This document shows positions 1-10,154 of a stretch of 10,154 bases of DNA, piece by piece. The position numbers and the translations under genes are program-made. Numbering within the stretch: the stretch's first letter is position 1; each line of letters starts with the position of its first letter. Under the pieces are notes generated by a model, which saw only the letters and a program-made list of their open reading frames with translations, had not been told where the DNA came from and ran no database searches. Origin of the DNA: a virus (lineage: Duplodnaviria; Heunggongvirae; Uroviricota; Caudoviricetes); the IMG/VR virus record IMGVR_UViG_2671181118_000005; one strand, given 5' to 3'.

Positions 1-2454
1 GTAATCAAACGACGATGTGGTTTTCGTCCCCAAATCCGTACTGGATGCGCTGGCGCTGTGGGTGTGCGATTTAATGCCGTCCTGTTCCTGAGACAATACG
101 GCCCGACCACTGGCAGGTTTGCCCTTAATCGTCCAGCCACGCATATCAGGGATCACGCCTGACGGATAAGCGGCTGCAAGTTTCGGGTAAGCAGATTTGT
201 CAAAAGTCTGCCCCTGCATCAGGGCATAACCAGACGGAACGGTATCTGATGGCCACGGGATTGGTGCGCCGACTGGGTAGCTTTCTGGTGGAAGATTTTT
301 CGAGGTATAAACTTCTGCCCAGCCTTCCTCAAAACCATAACCGTCTCTTGAAGAACGGTAGAACAGACCACCATTTCTGTAATGCGCCTTCATCTGCAGG
401 GTCCGGCAACTTCCGACTCCGGTATAGAAGTTAACCAGAATATAGCTGTCGCCAGAGCGGGTGACATTGTAAGCGCCTGATTCGGCATTCCAGGGAACGC
501 CACCATCCGCATCGGCATATGTATCCGTTGCCCTTCTGGCAAAAGCAGCCACATGCGCGGCGGTTAAAGTAATATCTTTGGAACCATCAAATGGAACACC
601 GGATATTTTTCTTGCAGTCTGGAGTTTTGTAGCAGTTGCAGCATTACCAGTGGTGTTCTGATTACCCGTAGTGTTTACACCTGGAAGGTTAATATTTGCA
701 GAACCGTCGAAAACAACTCCACCGATAGATCTTGCCGTCTGCAATTTCGTGGCTGTACTTGCATTACCATTCAATGAACCAGTTAATCCACCTGTAACAG
801 ACAACGGACCTGAAACTGTTCCTCCGGTTGTTGGCAGTGCTCCAATATCTGATGGTGTAGGTTTCTGATGTGAGCTATACATCGTATAAACAACACCATA
901 GGTAACGCTGGAAGGCTTACTCGCTGAATATGTTGGCGAGGTATAAACAGAAACTGACGCATTTGCAGTACAATCCCAATGGATATTTACACTCGTCGCA
1001 TAATTGCCAATCTCAACGTAAATATCATATGTATCGCCGGATGTGTTGATCCAGGCGAAATTCGTTAATCCGACGGCTGTACGCTTCCACAAAGCCCCGG
1101 TAATTCCTTTGGGGTTTCCATTGCCTGCTCGTAGAACCAGTTCTGAAATGCCTGCCTGATGTGGGGAACCGACGTTGTAACCAGCGCCACCAATCAATGC
1201 GATGTAAACGATGGAACTCGCTTGTGGCATGGTAACCGTAGCCAGTTTGAACCACCCAGCCCCGCCAGAGAAAGACATCGTTACTGAATTTAAAGTACCA
1301 ATATCTTTCGGCGTTAATGTTATATCCGCAGTCAGTGCTTTTCCGTTAACTTTTCGGTTAGATGGCACCCTGCTATTCGCATTGTCATTGGCTGCTTTAA
1401 CTGCTTTTGGCGTTGCGGCCAGCGATTCACTGGTGCTATCAACAGCACTGCTAAGTTTCACAACACCTTTAGTTGTAAGGCTTGCGTCTTCCATCGCAAC
1501 TGCACCGGCAATCTCTTCAGCACGATCAGCAGCAGCTTCCGCACGGGTCGCAGCGGATTCAGCAGTAGTTTTGCTCTGAGATGCCGCCGTCGCACTGCCA
1601 GCTGCCTCTGTCGCCTTCGTGGATGCTGTCGTGGCGCTGCCTTTCGCTGCTGATGCCTGTCTGCTCGCCTCATCTTTTGAAGCAGACGCAGATGATGCCG
1701 ATGACGCCGCCGAACTGGCGGACGATGCAGCTGCCATTTTTGAGGATTCTGCACTGGTTTCCGAGGCTTTCGCGTTCGTTTCGGATGTCTTCGCTGCGGA
1801 TGCAGACCTCGCTGCTGCGCTGGCCTGTTCAGCGGCTTCGCCAGCCTTCGTTGTGGCTGTTGAAGCAGACGATGCGGCGCTTTCTGCCGATTTTCCGGCG
1901 GCGGTGGCACTGGCTGAGGCCTGCCCGGCACTTGTTGACGCGGCACTGGCAGACGACGCAGCCGCTGTTTTTGAGCCTGCCGCAGCCGAGGCGCTCTGTC
2001 CCGCTGCCGTTTCAGAAGACCTGGCGTTTGTCTCAGACGTCTTTGCCGCCTTCGCGGAATTGCCTGCCGCCGTTGCCGAGGAAGCGGCACTACTGGCGCT
2101 TGATGATGCGTTCGTTTCTGATGATTTCGCTGCCTCTTTTGAGGCCGCCGCATCCCGGGCTGAGGTGGCTGCTTCTGACGCCTTCGTGGTCGCGGCGGAT
2201 GCAGAAGTGGCTGCTGATTGTTGTGACGCTGCCGCATTCGTTTCTGACGTTTTCGCCGCACCGGCACTGGTAGCTGCCGCGCTTTTTGAGGACTCTGCAG
2301 CAGCACTTTTTGCTGCTTCACGGGCCTTTGTCGATGCCGTTCCTGCGCTGGAAGACGCTGACTGAGCCGACGACGCGGCCTGTCCGGCTGACGTGCTGGC
2401 GGCACGTGCTGAGCCTGCAGCATCGGTTATTACCACTTCCCGGATCGCTATACG
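1..2454 (-). pseudogene. stf: Side tail fibre protein (lambda Stf family), 5'-truncated, C-terminus beyond window start. Frame is open from an in-frame TAG at 2455-2457 to position 1 and has no start codon of its own.
   Basis: Hand translation of the minus strand (codons with lowest coordinate = 1 mod 3). Positions 60-1 give [20 protein letters not shown], matching the recalled lambda Stf C-terminal region; 1740-1380 give Ala/Ser/Thr-rich sequence ([26 protein letters not shown]) matching mid-Stf; 2440-2380 give [16 protein letters not shown], matching Stf around residue 140. Spot checks at 541-600, 901-960 and 1201-1260 show no stops. Confidence 0.8.
1460..2430 (-). repeat. Low-complexity Ala/Ser/Thr-rich coding repeat inside the tail fibre gene; it leaves several frames open on both strands.
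   Basis: Reiterated GCN/TCN/ACN codons in the true frame. The six-frame track shows long stop-free ORFs in other frames (Arg/Pro/Gln-rich on minus, Ala/Asp-rich on plus) typical of such repeats. Confidence 0.6.
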
Positions 2455-3292
2455 CTATTCCGTTAAAGATAATGGGCGGAATAATGATTTGACGGTCAAA
2501 GTTATGATCATCGCTGATGGTGACTGTAACCGTCCCGTTTGGTGTTTCCGTATTACCCCACGTACCAGCCTGTTTCGGGAATGATTTGGATACAGCTTTA
2601 ACGAAGTCACCTCTGACCTGAGTCGCCTCCAGCATGCCCTTAATCGTACAGTTTTCATTTACCGTGACATTGTTGAGCGTCCCGGCGTTCGCATTCACAC
2701 TGCCACTGATATCCGCATTTTTAGCGGTCAGCTTTCCGTCCGGTGTCAGGGAAAATGCCGGTGGATTTCCACCGCTGGTAATGGTGGGGGCCGTCAGGCG
2801 TTTCAGGAACACGTCGTTCATGAATATCTGATCGCCCTGACCAACAAACATCGGTTTTGTGTTGCCATTCGCAGGATTAACCATCGCAATCCTGTCCGCC
2901 GCCAGCAGCACCTGACTCTGCATGCCGTCAGGGGTGTTCTCAATATCCACGATGGCCTCTTTTTCCGGTACATGCTGCACGGCGGTGATGGCATACGTGC
3001 CGTCGTCGTTCTCACGGATACTCACGCAGCGGAACAGGCGCTGGCGCAACGTCGGCAGCTTCAGCCCCCATACGCTGTATTCAGCAACGCCGTCAGGAAC
3101 ACGGCTCACTTTCACCTTCACGCCGTCGGTGACGGACTGAACCTCCACGCTGACCGGACTCCCCTGCCCGTCAACCAGGCTTATCAGCGTGGTGCCGGAA
3201 GATGGCAGCGTGATTTCACGGTCGAGCGTCAGCGTCCGGGTCTGGCTGTTTACCGCCAGCACGCGCCCGCCGGTGCGGATACCCAAGCTGGA
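2318..3292 (-). pseudogene. J: Host specificity / central tail fibre protein J, internal fragment. N-terminal part is missing, the C-terminal receptor-binding end is missing, and the frame runs about 40 codons out of frame into stf before stopping at 2318.
   Basis: ORF translation [29 protein letters not shown]...[14 protein letters not shown]...[30 protein letters not shown] and ...[56 protein letters not shown]... matches the recalled C-terminal third of lambda J. The J frame opens right after a TAA about 3293-3301. Confidence 0.8.
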
Positions 3293-3504
3293 GTGGCGAA
3301 CGTTTTACCCTTGCTGATGAGGTATTCACTGATTTCGCTGTACCACATGTGGCTGAGTGCATTCTGGGAAAGACTGCGTCTCTCGCGCCACGGTTTAAGC
3401 ACCATGCGAAAGCATTTGCCGTCCTCCAGATAAGGCTGGATCTGCCGACCGATAGCGGTGAAGTTACCGCGATGCAATTTGATACCATCTTGTGGGAGGT
3501 TCAC
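3250..3504 (-). pseudogene. NinB/Orf-family recombination protein, N-terminal fragment of about 65 residues joined to J-derived sequence.
   Basis: GTG start at 3502-3504 preceded by GGAGGTG. The motif ERRSLSQN...W resembles the RSLDQNRKLW region of lambda NinB as recalled. The ORF then reads through J-derived DNA to a stop at 3250. Position after ren and the cargo island fits the lambda nin region. Confidence 0.5.
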
Positions 3505-3698
3505 GCTTCACCTCCGCAGAGATCAAACGCTGGATGCAAAATATCGCAGGTGCATTTCTGCATCTGTGAATGGAGAAGAGAGGTTGGATTGTATGTGCGC
3601 ATAAACGTCCCCGTTTAGCGCAGAAGTCACCGGAGTTGTTCAGGCCCCAATGGCATGATTATGGCTGGTTGATTATTGGAAATCAAATGTGCTGAAAA

Positions 3699-4208
3699 TT
3701 AGTCTGCCAAGTCTTCCTCAGTCGCAACTGGGTAATTCCAAATATCAAAAAAAGCTATAGCCTCCTGCCATTTGCTCCATAAGTTATCAAGTACTTGTGT
3801 AGGTTCCGTACTTTTAAAAACAGAATCAGCCGCATCACCGTTATGAACTTCCTCGTACAGTTCCATTATTAGCAGATTAACAAAGTACTGTTTCAACATT
3901 AATGCCTGATTACCTTCTTTCTGCTGGCTATCCTGCTTGATGATCTCCATCGCCCGTACTAGGCACCTGATGATATCCGCTGCATCATTAACGCTCCATT
4001 CAGATCCGCGCTTATCTTTAGCTGATGAATTGGCTCTCTCAGCGCAAGCCTTTAAAGACTCATAAAGGTAAACTCTATTTTGTAGCTGCAGCGCTTTTTT
4101 TGACGTGTACCAACTTGCAAGCGCCGACCCCGCTGCGGCTAATGTGCCAAACGCAGAAATACCTGCTGCTATTGCACTTAAGTCGGCACTGTCAAAGTTC
4201 CACATCAT
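3699..4208 (-). CDS. Hypothetical 169-aa protein with a single N-terminal hydrophobic segment (likely membrane anchor) and a helical, acidic C-terminal domain. Orphan; function unknown.
   Basis: ATGATG start with AAGGTG Shine-Dalgarno about 6 nt upstream. Residues about 10-32 (LSAIAAGISAFGTLAAAGSALASWY) are hydrophobic. AT-rich upstream region, and an upstream terminator separates it from the preceding gene. Confidence 0.55.
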   Translation of the reverse strand: MMWNFDSADLSAIAAGISAFGTLAAAGSALASWYTSKKALQLQNRVYLYESLKACAERANSSAKDKRGSEWSVNDAADIIRCLVRAMEIIKQDSQQKEGNQALMLKQYFVNLLIMELYEEVHNGDAADSVFKSTEPTQVLDNLWSKWQEAIAFFDIWNYPVATEEDLAD

Positions 4209-4383
4209 CGTTACACCTTATATAAATACCCCTCAGTAATATCCAATAAGGTATGTGCACAATCAATATAATTTTATCCGTATCGGCACATAGCGATTTG
4301 AACGCTACTGGTAATGGTATATTTTAGATTATATCGTCCAGTTTACAGCACCCGTATTTTATGAAATGGACTCGCATATTACC
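4209..4383 (-). promoter_or_regulatory. AT-rich putative promoter/operator region for the 169-aa gene, including an inverted repeat ATGTGC-N27-GCACAT at 4253-4291.
   Basis: Non-coding AT-rich DNA between an upstream terminator and the start codon. The inverted repeat was seen by eye; no promoter consensus was scored. Confidence 0.3.
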
Positions 4384-4422
4384 CAAAAAATGCCAGCACT
4401 TCCGTCATCGTAGAATGCTGGC
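4384..4422 (-). terminator. Rho-independent terminator candidate downstream of the 99-aa ORF (minus-strand sense).
   Basis: Perfect 7-bp inverted repeat GCCAGCA ... TGCTGGC at 4392-4398 / 4416-4422, followed on the minus strand by ATTTTTTGGG (plus 4384-4391). Confidence 0.4.
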
Positions 4423-4466
4423 AGTATTTCTAACTAGTGACTTTATTGGAACAGATTCTGACGGAA

Positions 4467-4766
4467 TTATGGTAACACTCGACTCCACTTATCATCCAGC
4501 CACGGCTGGAATTTTACATGTGCCGTTTCTCTGGCGAGGATTGCTCGCGCTCTGTTGAGTATCTGGGGATATTCTTGCTCGATAGAAGTAAAGCGGCCGG
4601 CTTCGCGGTGCTCCGCAACCTGAAGTAGTGGAGTAACGTTCTGGCAGGCAGTTAACATCACATCACCTGCTCGCCATAACCAAGCACGTGCACAAAGTTT
4701 GTTATCAGTGAATTGTTTTGTGATTGGGTATTGTTGAACTGCTAGAACGAGAACGCCAGCATCCAT
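4467..4766 (-). CDS. Hypothetical 99-aa protein, no recognisable motif.
   Basis: ORF with ATG start bounded by an in-frame TAG three codons upstream; weak ribosome-binding site; followed by the terminator-like hairpin at 4384-4422. Confidence 0.4.
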   Translation of the reverse strand: MDAGVLVLAVQQYPITKQFTDNKLCARAWLWRAGDVMLTACQNVTPLLQVAEHREAGRFTSIEQEYPQILNRARAILARETAHVKFQPWLDDKWSRVLP

Positions 4767-4877
4767 TGGCAGTCCCTATAGTAAAACCATAGCTCAGGAC
4801 GCTTCGTTCAGGATAGATAATTTTATTGTGCTTACCTAACTTTCTTACTATAGCACGGTTGAAAAAGTGATTATTAC

Positions 4878-6404
4878 TCAAAAATAAACCTCACCATCAA
4901 CCATATATTTGAGAGTACTTATCGCCTGCTGGGCGGATATTGTTTTCATTAAAGGATAGTGTTTAAAAACAATGCCATTCATAAAATAGATATCACAGGT
5001 TTTATTATCTGTATTGATTATGATTTTTTCGAATGTTTTATAGGCAAGTGTACGACATAGCTCTCGCCCATTTTTACTGGTTAAGTCAATAGCATGAAAA
5101 TCACCAAGTGAACTCACCGCTTTACTCTTCAAAGTTTTTAATGATACAGAAGCCCTTCGTAATTCCTTATCTAATACTCTGATTTTTTCTGCTATAGCGG
5201 TAACTTCAGGCGCAACAGATAATGCAGCAATTAAATTATTAATTTTCATCTGGAGCTCAATAATTTTCAACTCTAAAGTTTCATTAGCATCTTTCTTGTT
5301 TTCAACTGGTTGGATTTTACTACAATTAAAAAGCAACTCATTAATGATATTATAATCAACCAAATCTCTCTTTATTGATGGCCTGTCACATCGATGCAGT
5401 CTTCTCATCGGACAAACATAATAGCCATGCAAACTTCCAGATACCGCATGAACAATCATGGTATTACCACAAGCCTCGCACTTCATAACTGTTCGAAGTA
5501 GATTTATCAACATAGGATTTTTGCTACTATTGCTAATACCAAAAGGTGCCAACCGAATTTCCTGCACAGCGTAAAACAAATCATCTGATATGACTCTGGG
5601 ATAATAGCCAGCGATTTCACTTATTCCTTTACCTCTTGCACGATATGAAGGTACGCATATACCTATCAGAGCTTTATTCGCTAATAATTTTTCAATTACA
5701 GAAGGTCCCCATGCACTTTCTTTTCCTGAGAAATTCTTTACAGCATGATCATTTAAATACTTGGCTATTGCATTCAATGAGCGCCTTTCCATCCTGAGTT
5801 TAAAAATTAGCTCAATAGTTTTCACCCTGTCGGGGTCTGGAACAAAAGCCGTTCTTTTGTCATCCAATGAGAGCCATCTCGGACAAGACGCCGTCATAAT
5901 CGTGCCTGACTCCAGTGCATCCTGCCGTTTTTTCTTCCATGATAATTTAACCCGACTTGACTTTATCTCGCTTTCTTCATTTGCCCTTTGTGCTATAAGT
6001 ATGGCTTTTATTAATGAATATGGCTCATTCAATGAGTCAATATTATAGACTGTATTATCGCAAAGAGTTATAACATCAATACCGTGATTCAAAATCAATT
6101 TCAGACGCTCAATCGCCTCACCGACTTTTTCTCTTGAAAGTCTGTCCAGACTTTCAACTAACAATGTAGTCCCTGGCAATATATAACCATGTTCTATAGC
6201 ATCTAAAAATTCCGAAAAAGCTCCTGATTGTGCATGCTTTCCATTGAATGCGCTTAACCCCAAATCTTCATACGTTACGGTATCAAGGTAATAATCACTA
6301 TTTACCTTTAGCCATTCAGTAATAAGCCTTCTCTGGCGGTTTAATGAATCACCAGACATCTGACTTGGTGATGAAAATCGCATATATGCTATGGCTTTTT
6401 TCAT
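4878..6404 (-). CDS. ybcK: Large serine recombinase, 508 aa (resolvase-type catalytic N-terminal domain, recombinase domain, Cys-rich zinc-ribbon, coiled-coil region). Resembles the DLP12 putative recombinase YbcK.
   Basis: N-terminal AYMRFSSPSQ...R motif typical of serine recombinases; C-x2-C ... C ... C cluster (CEACGNT...YYVCPMRRLHRCDRP). Length and position next to emrE match K-12 ybcK as recalled. AT-rich codon usage. Confidence 0.85.
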   Translation of the reverse strand: MKKAIAYMRFSSPSQMSGDSLNRQRRLITEWLKVNSDYYLDTVTYEDLGLSAFNGKHAQSGAFSEFLDAIEHGYILPGTTLLVESLDRLSREKVGEAIERLKLILNHGIDVITLCDNTVYNIDSLNEPYSLIKAILIAQRANEESEIKSSRVKLSWKKKRQDALESGTIMTASCPRWLSLDDKRTAFVPDPDRVKTIELIFKLRMERRSLNAIAKYLNDHAVKNFSGKESAWGPSVIEKLLANKALIGICVPSYRARGKGISEIAGYYPRVISDDLFYAVQEIRLAPFGISNSSKNPMLINLLRTVMKCEACGNTMIVHAVSGSLHGYYVCPMRRLHRCDRPSIKRDLVDYNIINELLFNCSKIQPVENKKDANETLELKIIELQMKINNLIAALSVAPEVTAIAEKIRVLDKELRRASVSLKTLKSKAVSSLGDFHAIDLTSKNGRELCRTLAYKTFEKIIINTDNKTCDIYFMNGIVFKHYPLMKTISAQQAISTLKYMVDGEVYF

Positions 6405-6659
6405 GGTGACACCTGCTAAAGTATGCTTTTATAAACCTTAGTGGTGAGATATGATTTTTGTTTAATTTTTATTTAAAAAGACAATTAAGGTCACATTATC
6501 TTGAATATACAACAATAATCGTATTGCAATTTTCTTACACCATAATCTTGAAAGCACAAAAGAATGAATAAAAACTAAAGACATTAACAAAAAGCATAAA
6601 ACGAGGCCCATATAAATATACGAGCCTCCATATTTTAGTCGTTTAAAAACAAATTATTT
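6405..6659 (-). promoter_or_regulatory. AT-rich intergenic region; probable promoter region for the recombinase gene.
   Basis: About 255 bp of very AT-rich non-coding DNA between the emrE stop and the recombinase start. Confidence 0.3.
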
Positions 6660-6992
6660 TTAATGTGGTGTGCTTCGTGACAATAAATTAATAACCAACA
6701 CACCGGCACAAATCAACATCATGCCTATAATGGCTGGCAGGTCCAACCGTTGGCCGAAAAATCCCCATGATAGTAAGCTAATCAGGACAATACCGACTCC
6801 TGACCAGATAGCATAAGCAATCCCTGTAGGAATATAAGCCAGCGTCTGAGCTAATAACCAGAATGATGCACAATAACAAATAATTGTACCAACAGATGGC
6901 CATAACCGTGTAAAACCTTCTGAAAACTTCATTAAGGTTGTACCAATGACCTCTGCAAGTATTGCACCACCAAGATAAATATAAGGGTTCAT
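6660..6992 (-). CDS. emrE: Small multidrug resistance (SMR) efflux transporter EmrE, 110 aa.
   Basis: From the internal Met (MNPYIYLGGAILAEVIGTTLMKFSEGFTRLWPSVG...LSRSTPH) the translation is near-identical to E. coli EmrE as recalled. AGGAAAG ribosome-binding site upstream of ATG at 6990-6992. The upstream 18 codons in the track ORF are probably not translated. Confidence 0.93.
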   Translation of the reverse strand: MNPYIYLGGAILAEVIGTTLMKFSEGFTRLWPSVGTIICYCASFWLLAQTLAYIPTGIAYAIWSGVGIVLISLLSWGFFGQRLDLPAIIGMMLICAGVLVINLLSRSTPH

Positions 6993-7059
6993 AGCATATT
7001 CTTTCCTGTTCAAACTGGAGAGAATTGTACTACAGTTTGAACTCAACTCACCTGTTTCA

Positions 7060-7362
7060 TCATTGTGTACCCATTGATGTTCTTTTATATACCCTCAATA
7101 CCCGTTTCATCGCGGCACTCTGGCGACACTCCTTAAAAATCAAATTCGTGCTCACCTTTCCTTCCCATTCTTCTCTGGTAGCGAACCGATAATACACCGT
7201 TCGCCAGACCTTACCATCAACGACTAGGATTCCTGCCCGCGCCATTTTAGCCGCAGCCTGATTTATGCTGGTTACCGTTGCGCCTGTTACCGCGGCAACG
7301 TCCTGCGCACAGAATTTCTTATGAGTCCCCAGGTAATGAATAATTGACTCTTTGCCCGTCAT
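7060..7362 (-). CDS. ren: Ren protein (lambdoid Ren exclusion-related protein), 100 aa.
   Basis: MTGKE.IIHYLGTH...TGATVTSINQAAAKMARAG...VWRTVYYRFATREE matches lambda Ren as recalled. 4-bp ATGA overlap with the P stop, as in lambda. Confidence 0.85.
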   Translation of the reverse strand: MTGKESIIHYLGTHKKFCAQDVAAVTGATVTSINQAAAKMARAGILVVDGKVWRTVYYRFATREEWEGKVSTNLIFKECRQSAAMKRVLRVYKRTSMGTQ

Positions 7363-8060
7363 ACCCTTGCTCCTTTCAGCCCAAACTTAGCTTTGATTTC
7401 TGCGATCTTCGCCAGAGCCTGTGCACGATTTAGAGGTCTACCGCCCATGACAGGAAGTTGTTTTACTGGTTCAGGTATAGCCTCACCACGGTTAATTCGT
7501 GCGGTCATACAGGACAGTTCATCGGCAGCCTTGCGCCGTAATTCCGCGTCAGTCAACGCATTGGCCCGCATGTTCTGATACAGGTTGGTAACCAGCCAGT
7601 AGTGCGCGTTTGATTTCCACGGATAAGACTCTGCATCCGGATACAGCCCGCGCTTCCGGCAATACTCGTAAACCATATCAACCAGCTCGCTGGCGTTTGG
7701 CAGCCCGGCGGTAACGGATGCTTCTTCCCGGCACCAGGCGACAAACTGCCCGGGTGATGGCAGGAATGGTCGATTCTGCCGACGGGCTACGCGCATTCCA
7801 GCGTTAACCTGTTCCATTGTGGTGATCCCGTTTTCCCGAAAAGCCAGCACCCACTGGCGGCGGATTTCGTTCAGTTCATTCTGGTCACGGTTAGCCAGGC
7901 TCGCCGGGAAAGTTGCCAGTAACTGGCTGAACACACCGTTGATGATCTGCGCTACCTGCTGTACCTGTGGCTTTTCGTCGTACTGTTCCGGCATGTTGTT
8001 GGCGATCCGACGCATCTGCTCACGGTCAAAGTTAACCATCTGTGCGGCGATGTTTTTCAT
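7359..8060 (-). CDS. P: Replication protein P (DnaB helicase loader), 233 aa, apparently full length.
   Basis: MKNIAAQMVNFDREQMRRIANNMPEQYDEKPQVQQVAQIINGVF... matches lambda P almost residue for residue as recalled. Start overlaps the O stop (ATGA), as in lambda. Confidence 0.92.
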   Translation of the reverse strand: MKNIAAQMVNFDREQMRRIANNMPEQYDEKPQVQQVAQIINGVFSQLLATFPASLANRDQNELNEIRRQWVLAFRENGITTMEQVNAGMRVARRQNRPFLPSPGQFVAWCREEASVTAGLPNASELVDMVYEYCRKRGLYPDAESYPWKSNAHYWLVTNLYQNMRANALTDAELRRKAADELSCMTARINRGEAIPEPVKQLPVMGGRPLNRAQALAKIAEIKAKFGLKGARV

Positions 8061-8296
8061 AGATCCACCCCGTAAATCCAGTCAGTGTTTGTCAGGTCGA
8101 GTTTTGGTTTGCCGACTGTCACGCCAGCCTGTTGCTTGTTCCGGTTGATTTCGAGCTGGGTCCACTTGTCGCGGAGTTTGGCCGGACTCAGCACGTTACC
8201 GGACCAGAAGTTGTCCTGGCAGGCCCAGCGGAACAGTACACACATGTCGCGGTGGTTACGTCCATCACGTTCACGCATCAGACGGATATCGTTACC
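8057..8296 (-). pseudogene. O: Replication initiator O, C-terminal fragment of about 78 residues; N-terminal domain and the origin iterons are deleted.
   Basis: Minus-strand translation [76 protein letters not shown] matches the lambda O C-terminus. Upstream of about 8296 the same strand is antisense exo sequence. Confidence 0.85.
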
Positions 8297-8947
8297 GGGA
8301 TCGACGTGAGAGCTGTCGAACAGGGGGATGATGCGTGGCACAAATTACGGCTCGGCGTCATCACCGCTTCAGAAGTTCACAACGTGATAGCAAAGCCCCG
8401 CTCAGGAAAGAAGTGGCCTGACATGAAAATGTCCTACTTCCACACCCTGCTTGCCGAGGTTTGCACCGGTGTGGCTCCGGAAGTTAACGCTAAAGCACTG
8501 GCCTGGGGAAAACAGTACGAGAACGACGCCAGAACCCTGTTTGAGTTCACTTCCGGCGTAAATGTTATTGAATCCCCGATCATCTATCGCGACGAAAGTA
8601 TGCGCACCGCCTGCTCTCCCGATGGTTTATGCAGTGACGGCAATGGCCTTGAACTGAAATGCCCGTTTACCTCCCGGGATTTCATGAAGTTCCGGCTCGG
8701 TGGTTTCGAGGCCATAAAGTCGGCTTACATGGCCCAGGTGCAGTACAGCATGTGGGTGACGCGAAAAGATGCCTGGTACTTTGCCAACTATGACCCGCGT
8801 ATGAAGCGTGAAGGCCTGCATTATGTCGTGGTTGAGCGGGATGAAAAGTACATGGCGAATTTTGACGAGATGGTGCCGGAGTTCATCGAAAAAATGGACG
8901 AGGCACTGGCTGAAATTGGTTTTGTATTTGGGGAGCAATGGCGATGA
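8293..8947 (+). pseudogene. exo: Lambda-type exonuclease (Red-alpha / Exo), missing roughly its first 10 codons; fused upstream to antisense O/P DNA, with a fortuitous in-frame ATG at 8132.
   Basis: Translation from [31 protein letters not shown]... to ...[14 protein letters not shown] matches lambda Exo as recalled. bet and gam are not upstream where expected. Confidence 0.9.
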
Positions 8948-9009
8948 CGCATCCTCACGATAATATCCGGGTAGGCGCGATCACTTTCGTCTACTCCATT
9001 ACAAAGCGA

Positions 9010-9038
9010 GGCTGGGTATTTCCCGGCCTTTCTGTTAT
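9010..9038 (+). terminator. Candidate intrinsic terminator downstream of exo (lambda tL3-like position).
   Basis: GGCTGGG-TATTT-CCCGGCC hairpin (7-bp stem with one G-U pair) followed by TTTCTGTTAT. Confidence 0.3.
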
Positions 9039-9098
9039 CAGAAATCCACTGAAAGCACAGCGGCTGGCTGAGAAGATAAATAACAAACAGGAGGATAT

Positions 9099-9718
9099 AT
9101 GAGTCAGGTTGGTAATCATTCATTCGAATTTCCGGCATCGCAAGGTGTACAGGGTGGTACTGTTACACTCTTCCTTACCATACCAGGAAGATCGCTGGCT
9201 CGTTTCCTCGCTTCAGATAATTACGGCCATACACTGGAACGCTCTCAGCGAGAAATTAATCCAAATCGAGTACGAAAATTTTTAAATTATCTCACTAACG
9301 CAGACTCAAGAAATGAGCCTTTTATCATTCCCCCTCTCGTAGGTAACTGTGATTCGAATATAGAATTTGTACCGTTTGGCAACACAAATGTTGGTATAGC
9401 CAGAATTCCCCTCGACGCCGAAATAAAACTTTTTGATGGTCAACATCGTGCAGCTGGCATTGAGATATTTTGCCGAAGTTCCCCATCAACGCTCATGGTT
9501 CCCATGATGCTTACAATGAATCTGCCGCTAAAAACCCGGCAGCAGTTCTTTTCGGACATAAATAACAACGTTTCTAAGCCATCAGCGACCATCAATATGG
9601 CGTATAACGGCCGGGATGATATTGCTCAGGGAATGATATCCTTCCTGACCCAACATACTGTATTTGCCGATATAACCGATTTTGAACACAACGTAGTGCC
9701 ATTAAAAAGTAATATGTG
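9099..9718 (+). pseudogene. DGQHR-motif protein (DndB-like, ParB/Srx-fold family), 3'-truncated after about 206 codons by the IS insertion.
   Basis: ATG at 9099 with AGGAGG ribosome-binding site. Translation contains the family-defining FDGQHR motif (…AEIKLFDGQHRAAGIEIF…). The last 16 codons of the track ORF ([16 protein letters not shown]) are encoded by the IS left end, not by the gene. Confidence 0.7.
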
Positions 9719-9772
9719 TGAACCGCCCCGGGAATCCTGGAGACTAAACTTCCTGAGAAAGAGGTAAACAGG

Positions 9773-10099
9773 ATGACTAAAAATACTCGTTTTTCCCCCG
9801 AAGTCCGTCAACGGGCAGTCCGTATGGTTCTGGAAAGTCAGGATGAATATGACTCACAGTGGGCGGCAATTTGTTCCATTGCCCCAAAGATTGGCTGTAC
9901 GCCGGAGACTCTGCGTGTCTGGGTTCGCCAGCATGAGCGGGATACCGGGGGCGGTGATGGTGGGCTCACCAGCGCTGAACGTCAGCGTCTGAAAGAGCTG
10001 GAACGTGAAAATCGTGAACTGCGCCGCAGTAACGATATCCTTCGCCAGGCTTCCGCTTATTTTGCGAAGGCGGAGTTCGACCGCCTCTGGAAAAAATGA
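9773..10099 (+). CDS. IS629-group transposase OrfA (helix-turn-helix plus leucine-zipper subunit), 108 aa.
   Basis: [60 protein letters not shown]... matches IS629 OrfA as recalled. Confidence 0.9.
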
Positions 10100-10154
10100 T
10101 GCCACTGCTGGATAAGCTGCGTGAGCAGTACGGGGTCGGACCGGTATGCAGCGA
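10096..10154 (+). CDS. IS629-group transposase OrfB (catalytic subunit), N-terminal 19 codons only; made as an OrfAB fusion by -1 frameshifting at the A-rich slippery run.
   Basis: The -1 frame reads [19 protein letters not shown], matching the recalled OrfB N-terminus; slippery sequence GGAAAAAATGATG at 10089-10101 overlaps the orfA stop. Confidence 0.7.

Follow-up and report, generated by a model that had tools for sequence, protein, structure and literature searches.

A small protein family of temperate Enterobacteriaceae phages, PHROG 1779, with the predicted architecture of an inner-membrane accessory protein

The gene described here occupies positions 3699–4208 on the minus strand of a 10,154-nucleotide (nt) stretch of Caudoviricetes DNA (IMG/VR record IMGVR_UViG_2671181118_000005; the whole stretch is referred to as the window) that carries a prophage remnant. 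The available evidence supports well its assignment as a self-contained accessory ("moron-like") gene of temperate Enterobacteriaceae phages, encoding what is probably a non-enzymatic bitopic inner-membrane protein. By analogy with known systems, the protein may exclude superinfecting phages, or defend the cell at the inner membrane, by binding a component of genome entry; we put the probability of this reading at roughly 30%. The protein belongs to PHROG 1779, a family already known with the annotation "unknown function"; the architecture of the family, its genomic positions and its conserved leader are new here. An earlier reading of this DNA, made without database searches (the sequence-only reading), had drawn attention to the open reading frame (ORF) of 169 amino acids (aa) without stating its strand; the ORF exists at that length.

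The gene and its family

Substitution patterns indicate that the ORF is a real gene. Synonymous sites are saturated between lineages (proportion of synonymous differences, pS, 0.66–0.90, versus 0.14–0.50 for nonsynonymous differences, pN), and the dN/dS ratio is about 0.09 where dS can still be estimated; therefore the ORF is more than a chance reading frame. These comparisons also show that the gene is under purifying selection between lineages. Its translation signals are well formed, as had been noted before: a Shine-Dalgarno sequence (AAGGTG, 4219–4214) precedes a tandem ATGATG (4208–4203) that opens the ORF, and the stop codon is TAA (3701–3699). Since the first codon is ATA in alleles 97%–98% identical to this one, the second ATG (4205) is the conserved and likely true start, which would give a protein of 168 aa. 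The upstream region is AT-rich, in line with the earlier description (GC content of 0.38 across 4150–4449). The gene was added late to the RefSeq annotation (locus tag RS29495 in strain 55989).

The protein matched PHROG 1779 over its full length (residues 1–169 to profile positions 1–169 of 169, E = 1.2e-102), and this match makes it a member of that family. The only other PHROG match had an E value of 0.29 and is likewise annotated as of unknown function. The term "orphan" used in the sequence-only reading is thus inexact, although the family carries no functional information and every source labels its proteins "hypothetical". The family is small. It comprised 15 clusters among 5.8 billion sequences, or 42 clusters by profile search, and an exhaustive phmmer search recovered 22 representatives among 1.84 billion sequences. 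Members are 154–184 aa long or are fragments, and have neither extra domains nor fusions. All organisms named by the sources are Enterobacteriaceae (Escherichia, Scandinavium, Enterobacter, Phytobacter, Citrobacter, and Dryocola). Related loci were found with a narrower alignment, since a wider one had too few conserved stretches.

No match of the protein to Pfam, NCBIfam, or PADLOC was found even at E ≤ 10, which agrees with the earlier remark that it has no recognizable motif. When 29 members were scanned individually against Pfam, nothing significant appeared, only noise, and a sequence-profile search of PDB gave nothing better than E = 1.3. The remote-homology check proposed earlier revealed no clear homology to a housekeeping or structural phage protein among Pfam, NCBIfam, PADLOC, and PDB. 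A helical toxin of the HEPN type was considered and rejected: Foldseek hits to HepT/MntA were weak (E = 0.5–2.8, probability ≤0.44), and no Arg or His is conserved in the alignment, so that an Rx4-6H motif is missing.

Inspection of complete E. coli genomes by blastn showed matches to the gene in 207 of 5,426. The match covers the full length in 180 genomes and reaches an identity of 99% or more in 168; strain 55989 and O104:H4 strains are among the carriers. Two complete inducible phages, PhiR26_1 and PhiR5_1, also carry it. Disruption of the ORF in close relatives would have spoken against the sequence-only reading, and was not observed: all 43 near-identical copies taken as loci have an intact ORF of 168 or 169 codons, and a broken ORF was seen in a single, divergent copy (L045). 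A second allele of the family, 46% identical (WP_000017329.1), occupies the same genomic slot in about 26 E. coli genomes (loci L064, L065, and L068).

Predicted architecture and topology

The most likely architecture, judged from the alignment of 29 full-length members, is probably a single N-terminal inner-membrane anchor followed by a cytoplasmic helical acidic domain. This agrees with the hydrophobic helix and helical acidic domain described in the sequence-only reading. The protein has an isoelectric point of 4.6, its residues 10–36 form an uncharged stretch, and its C-terminal part contains 22 Asp/Glu and 15 Lys/Arg residues. An N-terminal uncharged run of 18–27 residues is present in all 29 members, with 55%–70% Gly/Ala/Ser/Thr in the helix (29/29) and a low hydrophobic moment (0.12–0.26). 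The best 19-residue Kyte-Doolittle window scores 1.59 in the protein and 1.55–2.27 across the members. The N-flank of the helix is acidic (1–4 Asp/Glu) and lacks Lys/Arg in 25 of the 29, the C-flank is basic (2–5 Lys/Arg within the next 15 residues), and flanking aromatic residues are kept beside the helix in every member. The positive-inside rule predicts a periplasmic N-terminus when the C-flank is the basic side. Applied to the flanks of this family, the rule gives a single predicted transmembrane helix, with the N-terminus in the periplasm and the body of the protein in the cytoplasm. A classical signal peptide was ruled out, since the N-terminal region is acidic and lacks Lys/Arg.

The helix is only marginally hydrophobic (approximate Hessa-scale sum of +2.7), which places the protein at the weak end of the family. 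This value, together with the Kyte-Doolittle score, fits a structural alternative in which the protein would be soluble and cytoplasmic, its Ala-rich N-terminal helix serving as a buried oligomerization element. One subfamily has an uncharged run of just 18 aa, followed by Arg-Ser-Ser-Glu, and AlphaFold draws residues 10–63 as one continuous helix, both consistent with a soluble protein. We consider this rather unlikely, because the uncharged run, the acidic N-flank, the basic C-flank, the flanking aromatics, and the low hydrophobic moment recur in every member, and because the low confidence of the model at residues 1–21 suggests that the helix does not pack on the bundle.

Structure prediction, proposed earlier as a check, gave an all-helical bundle. 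Two AlphaFold models, built with 14 and 29 sequences, agreed (predicted local distance difference test, pLDDT, of 70 and 72.8; predicted template modelling score of 0.63). The long helix of residues 10–63 is followed in the models by five shorter helices packed as a bundle, and a helical bundle of about 120 aa is a feature of all 29 members. Confidence is low for residues 1–21/26 (pLDDT <50 for residues 1–21) and for the tail (low around residues 159–166).

The invariant positions in the alignment are S18, S32, Q43, A56, W71, I79, F109, W147, and F153, and these residues are probably structural. The most conserved block is a loop-helix segment, ERAN..AKGK.G.[DE]W.[FV].DAANI. A C-terminal motif [TS]-[DE]-x-D-L-x-D is near-invariant and ends most family members; this disordered acidic tail looks like a docking peptide. 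No catalytic-looking or nucleotide-binding motif was found among the conserved residues of the 29 members. The protein is most likely a binder and not an enzyme, as far as its conserved residues indicate.

The composition of the N-terminal helix resembles that of the signal-anchor-release (SAR) helices of endolysins and pinholins, which are also dominated by Gly, Ala, Ser, and Thr. Such a composition lets SAR helices leave the membrane. However, SAR helices are oriented N-in/C-out, whereas the charge bias of the present family is opposite and predicts N-out/C-in. Neither similarity to a lysozyme or holin in the Pfam scan nor a lysis context at the loci was found. On this sequence comparison, the protein is like SAR helices in composition and is not a SAR protein.

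Genomic position

In PhiR26_1 and PhiR5_1, the gene lies in the early-right operon, in the order cro-cII-O-P-ren-[cargo]-Rha-gene-ybcN/ninB-...-Q, with all genes on the same strand. The sequence-only reading had placed it in a variable slot, at the position where DLP12 of E. coli K-12 carries ybcL and ybcM. The gene order of MG1655 agrees: DLP12 reads ybcK-ybcL-ybcM-33-aa ORF-ybcN, and the window reads ybcK-P22AR'-gene-33-aa ORF-ybcN', the primes denoting truncated genes. The slot is indeed variable and the gene is mobile. Comparison across strains showed that the ybcN-proximal boundary of about 180 bp is common to 2,957 E. coli genomes, only 176–180 of which have the gene. At this boundary a promoter-like element, TTGATT-17-CATAAT, is conserved in other genera (L055, L058, and L064).

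Directly upstream of the gene, a Bro-N/P22AR-C ("Rha/Roi-like") gene is present in all 43 E. coli-type loci. It is either full-length (202 or 249 aa) or cut to 79–107 aa, the latter in the 15 loci where ybcK, usually with emrE, lies upstream. In strain 55989 the remnant of this gene is annotated as a pseudogene with an internal stop. In the window, the serine recombinase gene ybcK (4878–6404, minus strand) and emrE (6660–6992, minus strand) form an AT-rich insertion with a GC content of 0.28–0.41. A functional pairing with the Rha/P22AR gene was ruled out, since the upstream gene varies in divergent lineages. In lineages 44%–75% identical to the protein, it encodes DUF551, HNH, MazG-like, or unknown proteins, and the downstream gene is usually ninB, a ybcN-type relative, or one encoding DUF1367.

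The region between ren and Rha holds alternative cargo: PD-λ-1 in 13 loci, ybcK in the 15 mentioned above, a HEC-07-like candidate in 3, and also Arc-like regulators, lipoproteins, and membrane proteins. The protein was not matched by PADLOC-DB defence profiles at E ≤ 10, while the neighbouring gene C16 matches PD-Lambda-1. PD-λ-1 is adjacent to the gene in only 13 of 54 loci and is encoded on the opposite strand, and a functional link between the two was therefore ruled out. In the window the gene has emrE, a host-beneficial cargo gene, as a neighbour.

Members 27%–35% identical are located elsewhere, yet are co-directional with neighbouring early genes. On the pL side they follow Ead/Ea22 or lie between RecT and Dam/xis/int (L062 and L063). 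The distant member of Dryocola (L061, 7001–7519) belongs to a small integrative element with Ogr, a pol III theta-like protein, AlpA, and an integrase, which adjoins a retron reverse transcriptase with a SLATT gene. Other distant members are found immediately upstream of phd-doc in P1-like phage-plasmids of 93–98 kb (e.g., L081, pS51_2, 6920–7384). No partner gene is conserved across the contexts examined, so the protein acts alone or with a component of the host or the incoming phage. Genes for Ead/Ea22-like and DUF551 proteins recur just upstream of members (L055, L056, L051/52, L062, L065, L068, L081, and L082); this may reflect a shared accessory neighbourhood or a functional link. No chromosomal copies outside prophages were found among the loci examined, and the family is confined to phage early regions.

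Leader, terminators, and state of the remnant

A leader conserved between lineages precedes the gene. It contains -35-like and -10-like hexamers (Table 1), the latter, GATATT, within the conserved TGGATATTAC at 4245–4236, and the inverted-repeat arms ATACC (4254–4250) and GGTAT (4230–4226) bracket the -10-like hexamer. In the nin-type lineages the block follows the pattern ATTG(A/C)T-N7-ATACC(C)-N3-4-TGGATATTA(C/T)-N5-6-(G)GGTAT, the -35-like element reads TTGNNN, and the -10-like hexamer ends 27–32 nt before the ATG. TTGATT-17-GATATT is the top-scoring site in four nin-type lineages, and the same block was found in two more. The block stands upstream of homologues 50%–75% identical although their upstream genes differ, and since synonymous sites are saturated at such distances, its conservation is not neutral.

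The motif TGGATATTAY occurs once in the window, versus 0.02 expected. Among 2.9 million viral contigs, the leader core had 12 exact matches, 5 of them upstream of family genes. A shared operator was considered and rejected, because the other 7 matches have no downstream family gene and no promoter-like or inverted-repeat context. A second leader type (L005, L006, and L064/65) has a perfect TATAAT followed by a CCCCTC-N8-GAGGGG hairpin, the 3' arm of which doubles as the ribosome-binding site. No known RNA element was found near the gene in Rfam, and fold z-scores of the leader hairpins are only about -2 and +0.6.

The sequence-only reading had also reported a terminator before the gene, and one was found: a hairpin (4422–4392) followed by a U6 run (4390–4385), with a folding energy of -17.6 kcal/mol and z = -2.9; none of 200 shuffled sequences folded as well. 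A simple terminator scan overlooked it; the probable reason is the loop, which exceeds the 8 nt that the scan allows. Every E. coli copy has kept this terminator. On the downstream side, L059 and L061–63 have strong intrinsic terminators after the stop codon, and none is clear directly after the stop in the E. coli type.

Overall, the organization appears moron-like, with two of the four features of morons, presence/absence polymorphism and flanking terminators, recognized in the sequences. Such an organization, the emrE neighbour in the window, and retention in remnants would also suit a lysogenic-conversion factor unrelated to phages: tethered to the membrane, such a protein would change the envelope physiology or the stress tolerance of its host, much as Bor and Lom serve theirs. 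This role is doubtful: the family has no chromosomal non-prophage copies among the loci examined and keeps to phage early regions, and the predicted working domain is cytoplasmic.

Alignment with the fuller prophage of strain 55989 revealed two deletion junctions in the remnant. The junction at about 3280 joins the 5' part of ybcN to a C-terminal fragment of the tail-tip gene J, and the one at about 8293 joins the 3' part of O to an exo/YqaJ gene. The same alignment, together with domain assignments, showed the absence of the repressor gene, cro, pR, pL, bet, gam, and kil. The segment from ybcN to J, where the standard lambdoid gene order places Q, the lysis genes, and the head genes, is also missing. 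Since the repressor, pR, and pL are lost, any expression of the gene in the remnant must start locally. The remnant (window positions 1–9718) was found in 16 complete genomes at identities of at least 99.8%.

Superinfection exclusion and alternative functions

According to the proposed mechanism, the gene would rely on its own leader for transcription in the prophage and, once induction has taken place, on read-through of the early operon. The protein would sit at the inner membrane, with an acidic N-terminus of about nine residues in the periplasm, one weakly hydrophobic helix rich in small residues across the membrane, and the helical bundle of about 120 aa and the conserved acidic C-terminal tail in the cytoplasm. 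The bundle and tail would bind a component of genome entry, either an inner-membrane permease of the host or the tape-measure or ejection proteins of the incoming phage. Superinfecting phages would thereby be excluded by binding only, without a nuclease. The presence/absence polymorphism in a cargo slot that also carries PD-λ-1, named SNIPE (13 loci), is consistent with such a role.

Precedents are available. HK97 gp15 and P22 SieA show that small inner-membrane proteins expressed from prophages can block DNA entry (PMC3594210, PMC10883804). For HK97 gp15, a small prophage-borne protein, the proposal is that it inserts into the inner membrane and there stops the genome from being injected; its gene forms an autonomous cassette inside an operon that has another function (PMC3594210). 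The present protein has no sequence similarity to gp15 in the PHROG and Pfam scans, and gp15 lies in the tail operon and resembles YebO, whereas the present gene lies in early accessory regions. P22 SieA is similar in size (162–164 aa) but has three predicted transmembrane helices instead of one, is not homologous, and has a different genomic location. The protein may work like gp15 or SieA while standing outside their families.

SNIPE, a validated defence nuclease bound to the membrane, cuts phage DNA as it is being injected; its N-terminus is predicted to lie in the periplasm and its body in the cytoplasm, joined by one transmembrane helix, and a test of this model with PhoA-LacZα fusions is described by its authors (PMC13190303). 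It shares with the present protein the ren-ninB cargo region and the predicted N-out single-pass C-in topology. Unlike SNIPE, the protein has no nuclease or other catalytic signature; it has no similarity to SNIPE, and the two are not consistently linked.

Several observations weigh against exclusion. Searches of Pfam, NCBIfam, PADLOC, PHROG, and PDB, together with fold searches, linked the protein to no exclusion or defence family by either sequence or fold, and profile searches at E ≤ 10 gave no sequence or profile similarity to the known exclusion families SieA, SieB, gp15, Imm, Ltp/Sie2009, and Cor. The literature contained no mention of the protein by accession, PHROG number, or phage name, and the protein is absent from the DefensePredictor supplements. 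In entry blockers the working part often faces the periplasm, and the domain of this protein is predicted to be cytoplasmic.

The promoter is a further point. The sequence-only reading had credited the gene with its own promoter; the site is conserved across lineages, but it matches only 8 of 12 consensus positions, was not flagged at 4266–4238 by a consensus promoter scan of the window, and scores no better per locus than shuffled sequence. In L061 the gene overlaps the upstream stop codon, leaving no intergenic region, so an own promoter is not universal. An own promoter of the gene in the window is plausible from the conserved leader.

The argument from persistence is also weak. The gene is intact in the remnant, as had been stated, but the 16 nearly identical copies indicate that the remnant is young, and intactness is therefore weak evidence of selection. 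Polymorphism within E. coli points the same way: 14 nonsynonymous and 4 synonymous variable codons among 12 alleles give a ratio that is about neutral, with numbers too small to interpret.

Finally, the gene is co-directional with early operons in every locus, an orientation that fits a lytic-cycle function equally well. The protein could be an early accessory factor serving the phage itself, for example by inhibiting a host protease or defence located at the membrane, by taking part in host takeover, or as a regulator; it would be made mainly by N-antiterminated read-through from pR or pL after infection or induction and not in the lysogen. We hold this tentatively, as about as likely as exclusion. 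The gene runs with the early operon in every locus, after O/P/ren and before ninB, its alternative sites being the pL-side ea/recombination regions (L062 and L063) and the early accessory region of P1-like elements beside phd-doc. Its recurrent Ead/Ea22-like and DUF551 neighbours are other early accessory genes, the L061 copy is coupled to the upstream gene, and a non-enzymatic binding architecture with a conserved acidic tail would suit an inhibitor. On the other hand, the upstream terminator and the travelling leader suggest autonomous expression, the intact gene persists in remnants incapable of lytic growth, and it is present in only 2 of 50,697 deposited phage genomes.

The small residues of the helix bear on a further alternative, an abortive-infection effector. 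Here the transmembrane helix would oligomerize to form a pore or disrupt the membrane once the cytoplasmic domain senses a phage product, and the infected cell would die. Many defence effectors are small membrane proteins, the gene is a single-gene unit in a cargo slot, and the Gly/Ala/Ser/Thr-rich helix has conserved small residues (S18, A24, and S32). Such a function is nevertheless unlikely, since a single helix of such marginal hydrophobicity is a poor pore former, no sensor-like domain is present, and PADLOC gave no match.

A more specific version of the exclusion reading would regard the anchor as an inverted (N-out), SAR-like helix acting as a membrane-potential switch, and the family as the founding member of a single-gene exclusion type common to lambdoid phages and P1-like phage-plasmids. 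As long as the membrane is energized, the anchor would keep the acidic cytoplasmic domain in place there, depolarization upon phage injection would release the domain or let it re-oligomerize, and the freed DEDLAD tail would bind and block an entry or early-replication component. This version is very unlikely.

Other features of the window

Coordinates of the gene and of the features around it are listed in Table 1. Beyond the exo/YqaJ fusion, a DndB/DGQHR-like ORF (9099–9767, plus strand) matches only profile positions 1–197 of 338 and appears, from the sequence, to be cut by an insertion element of the IS3 family (9773–10154, plus strand). An ALIL frameshift pseudoknot of this element was found at 10054–10154. 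The 16 genomes that otherwise match lack this insertion, their matches stopping at 9718. Tail-fibre DNA, GC-rich and repetitive, makes up the region 1458–2423, where both strands have long ORFs in several frames. In the RefSeq annotation of ML35, an antisense Ala/Asp-rich "hypothetical protein" lies in this region and is probably spurious; weak sub-threshold isrG-like hits to Rfam were also obtained there.

Table 1. Positions of the PHROG 1779 gene and associated features in the window
Feature	Coordinates	Strand	Details or basis
Coding sequence, 169-aa protein (WP_000990013.1)	3699–4208	minus	ORF list and sequence
Shine-Dalgarno AAGGTG	4214–4219	minus	5 nt before the first ATG, 8 nt before the second; read from sequence
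Hydrophobic helix, codons 10–34, Gly/Ala/Ser/Thr-rich, predicted N-out/C-in anchor	4107–4181	minus	hydropathy and charge bias
Acidic C-terminal tail ATEEDLAD, codons 162–169	3702–3725	minus	alignments
Conserved leader	4226–4266	minus	-35-like TTGATT 4266–4261, 17-nt spacer, -10-like GATATT 4243–4238
Intrinsic-terminator-like hairpin and U6 run	4385–4422	minus	after the truncated Rha/P22AR ORF, about 170 nt upstream of the gene
99-aa remnant (P22AR C-terminal domain) of Bro-N/P22AR "Rha/Roi-like" gene	4467–4766	minus	
Promoter-like TTGATT-17-CATAAT	3658–3686	minus	just past the stop codon of the gene, upstream of the 33-aa ORF and ybcN; promoter scan
33-aa ORF (ylcH position in K-12)	3502–3603	minus	

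Biological significance

The gene is carried by about 3%–4% of sequenced E. coli, including 55989 and O104:H4 lineages, and its family is also present on P1-like phage-plasmids. If the protein serves the phage early in infection, the conserved acidic tail would point to a host target. In either case it is a clean candidate; nothing about it contradicts current understanding, and nothing is surprising yet. If exclusion holds, the family would represent another small, non-enzymatic, single-gene barrier to phage entry and would provide a compact tool to probe the cytoplasmic face of the genome-injection step. It would also help to chart the ren-ninB region of lambdoid prophages, the source of SNIPE, as a defence hotspot.

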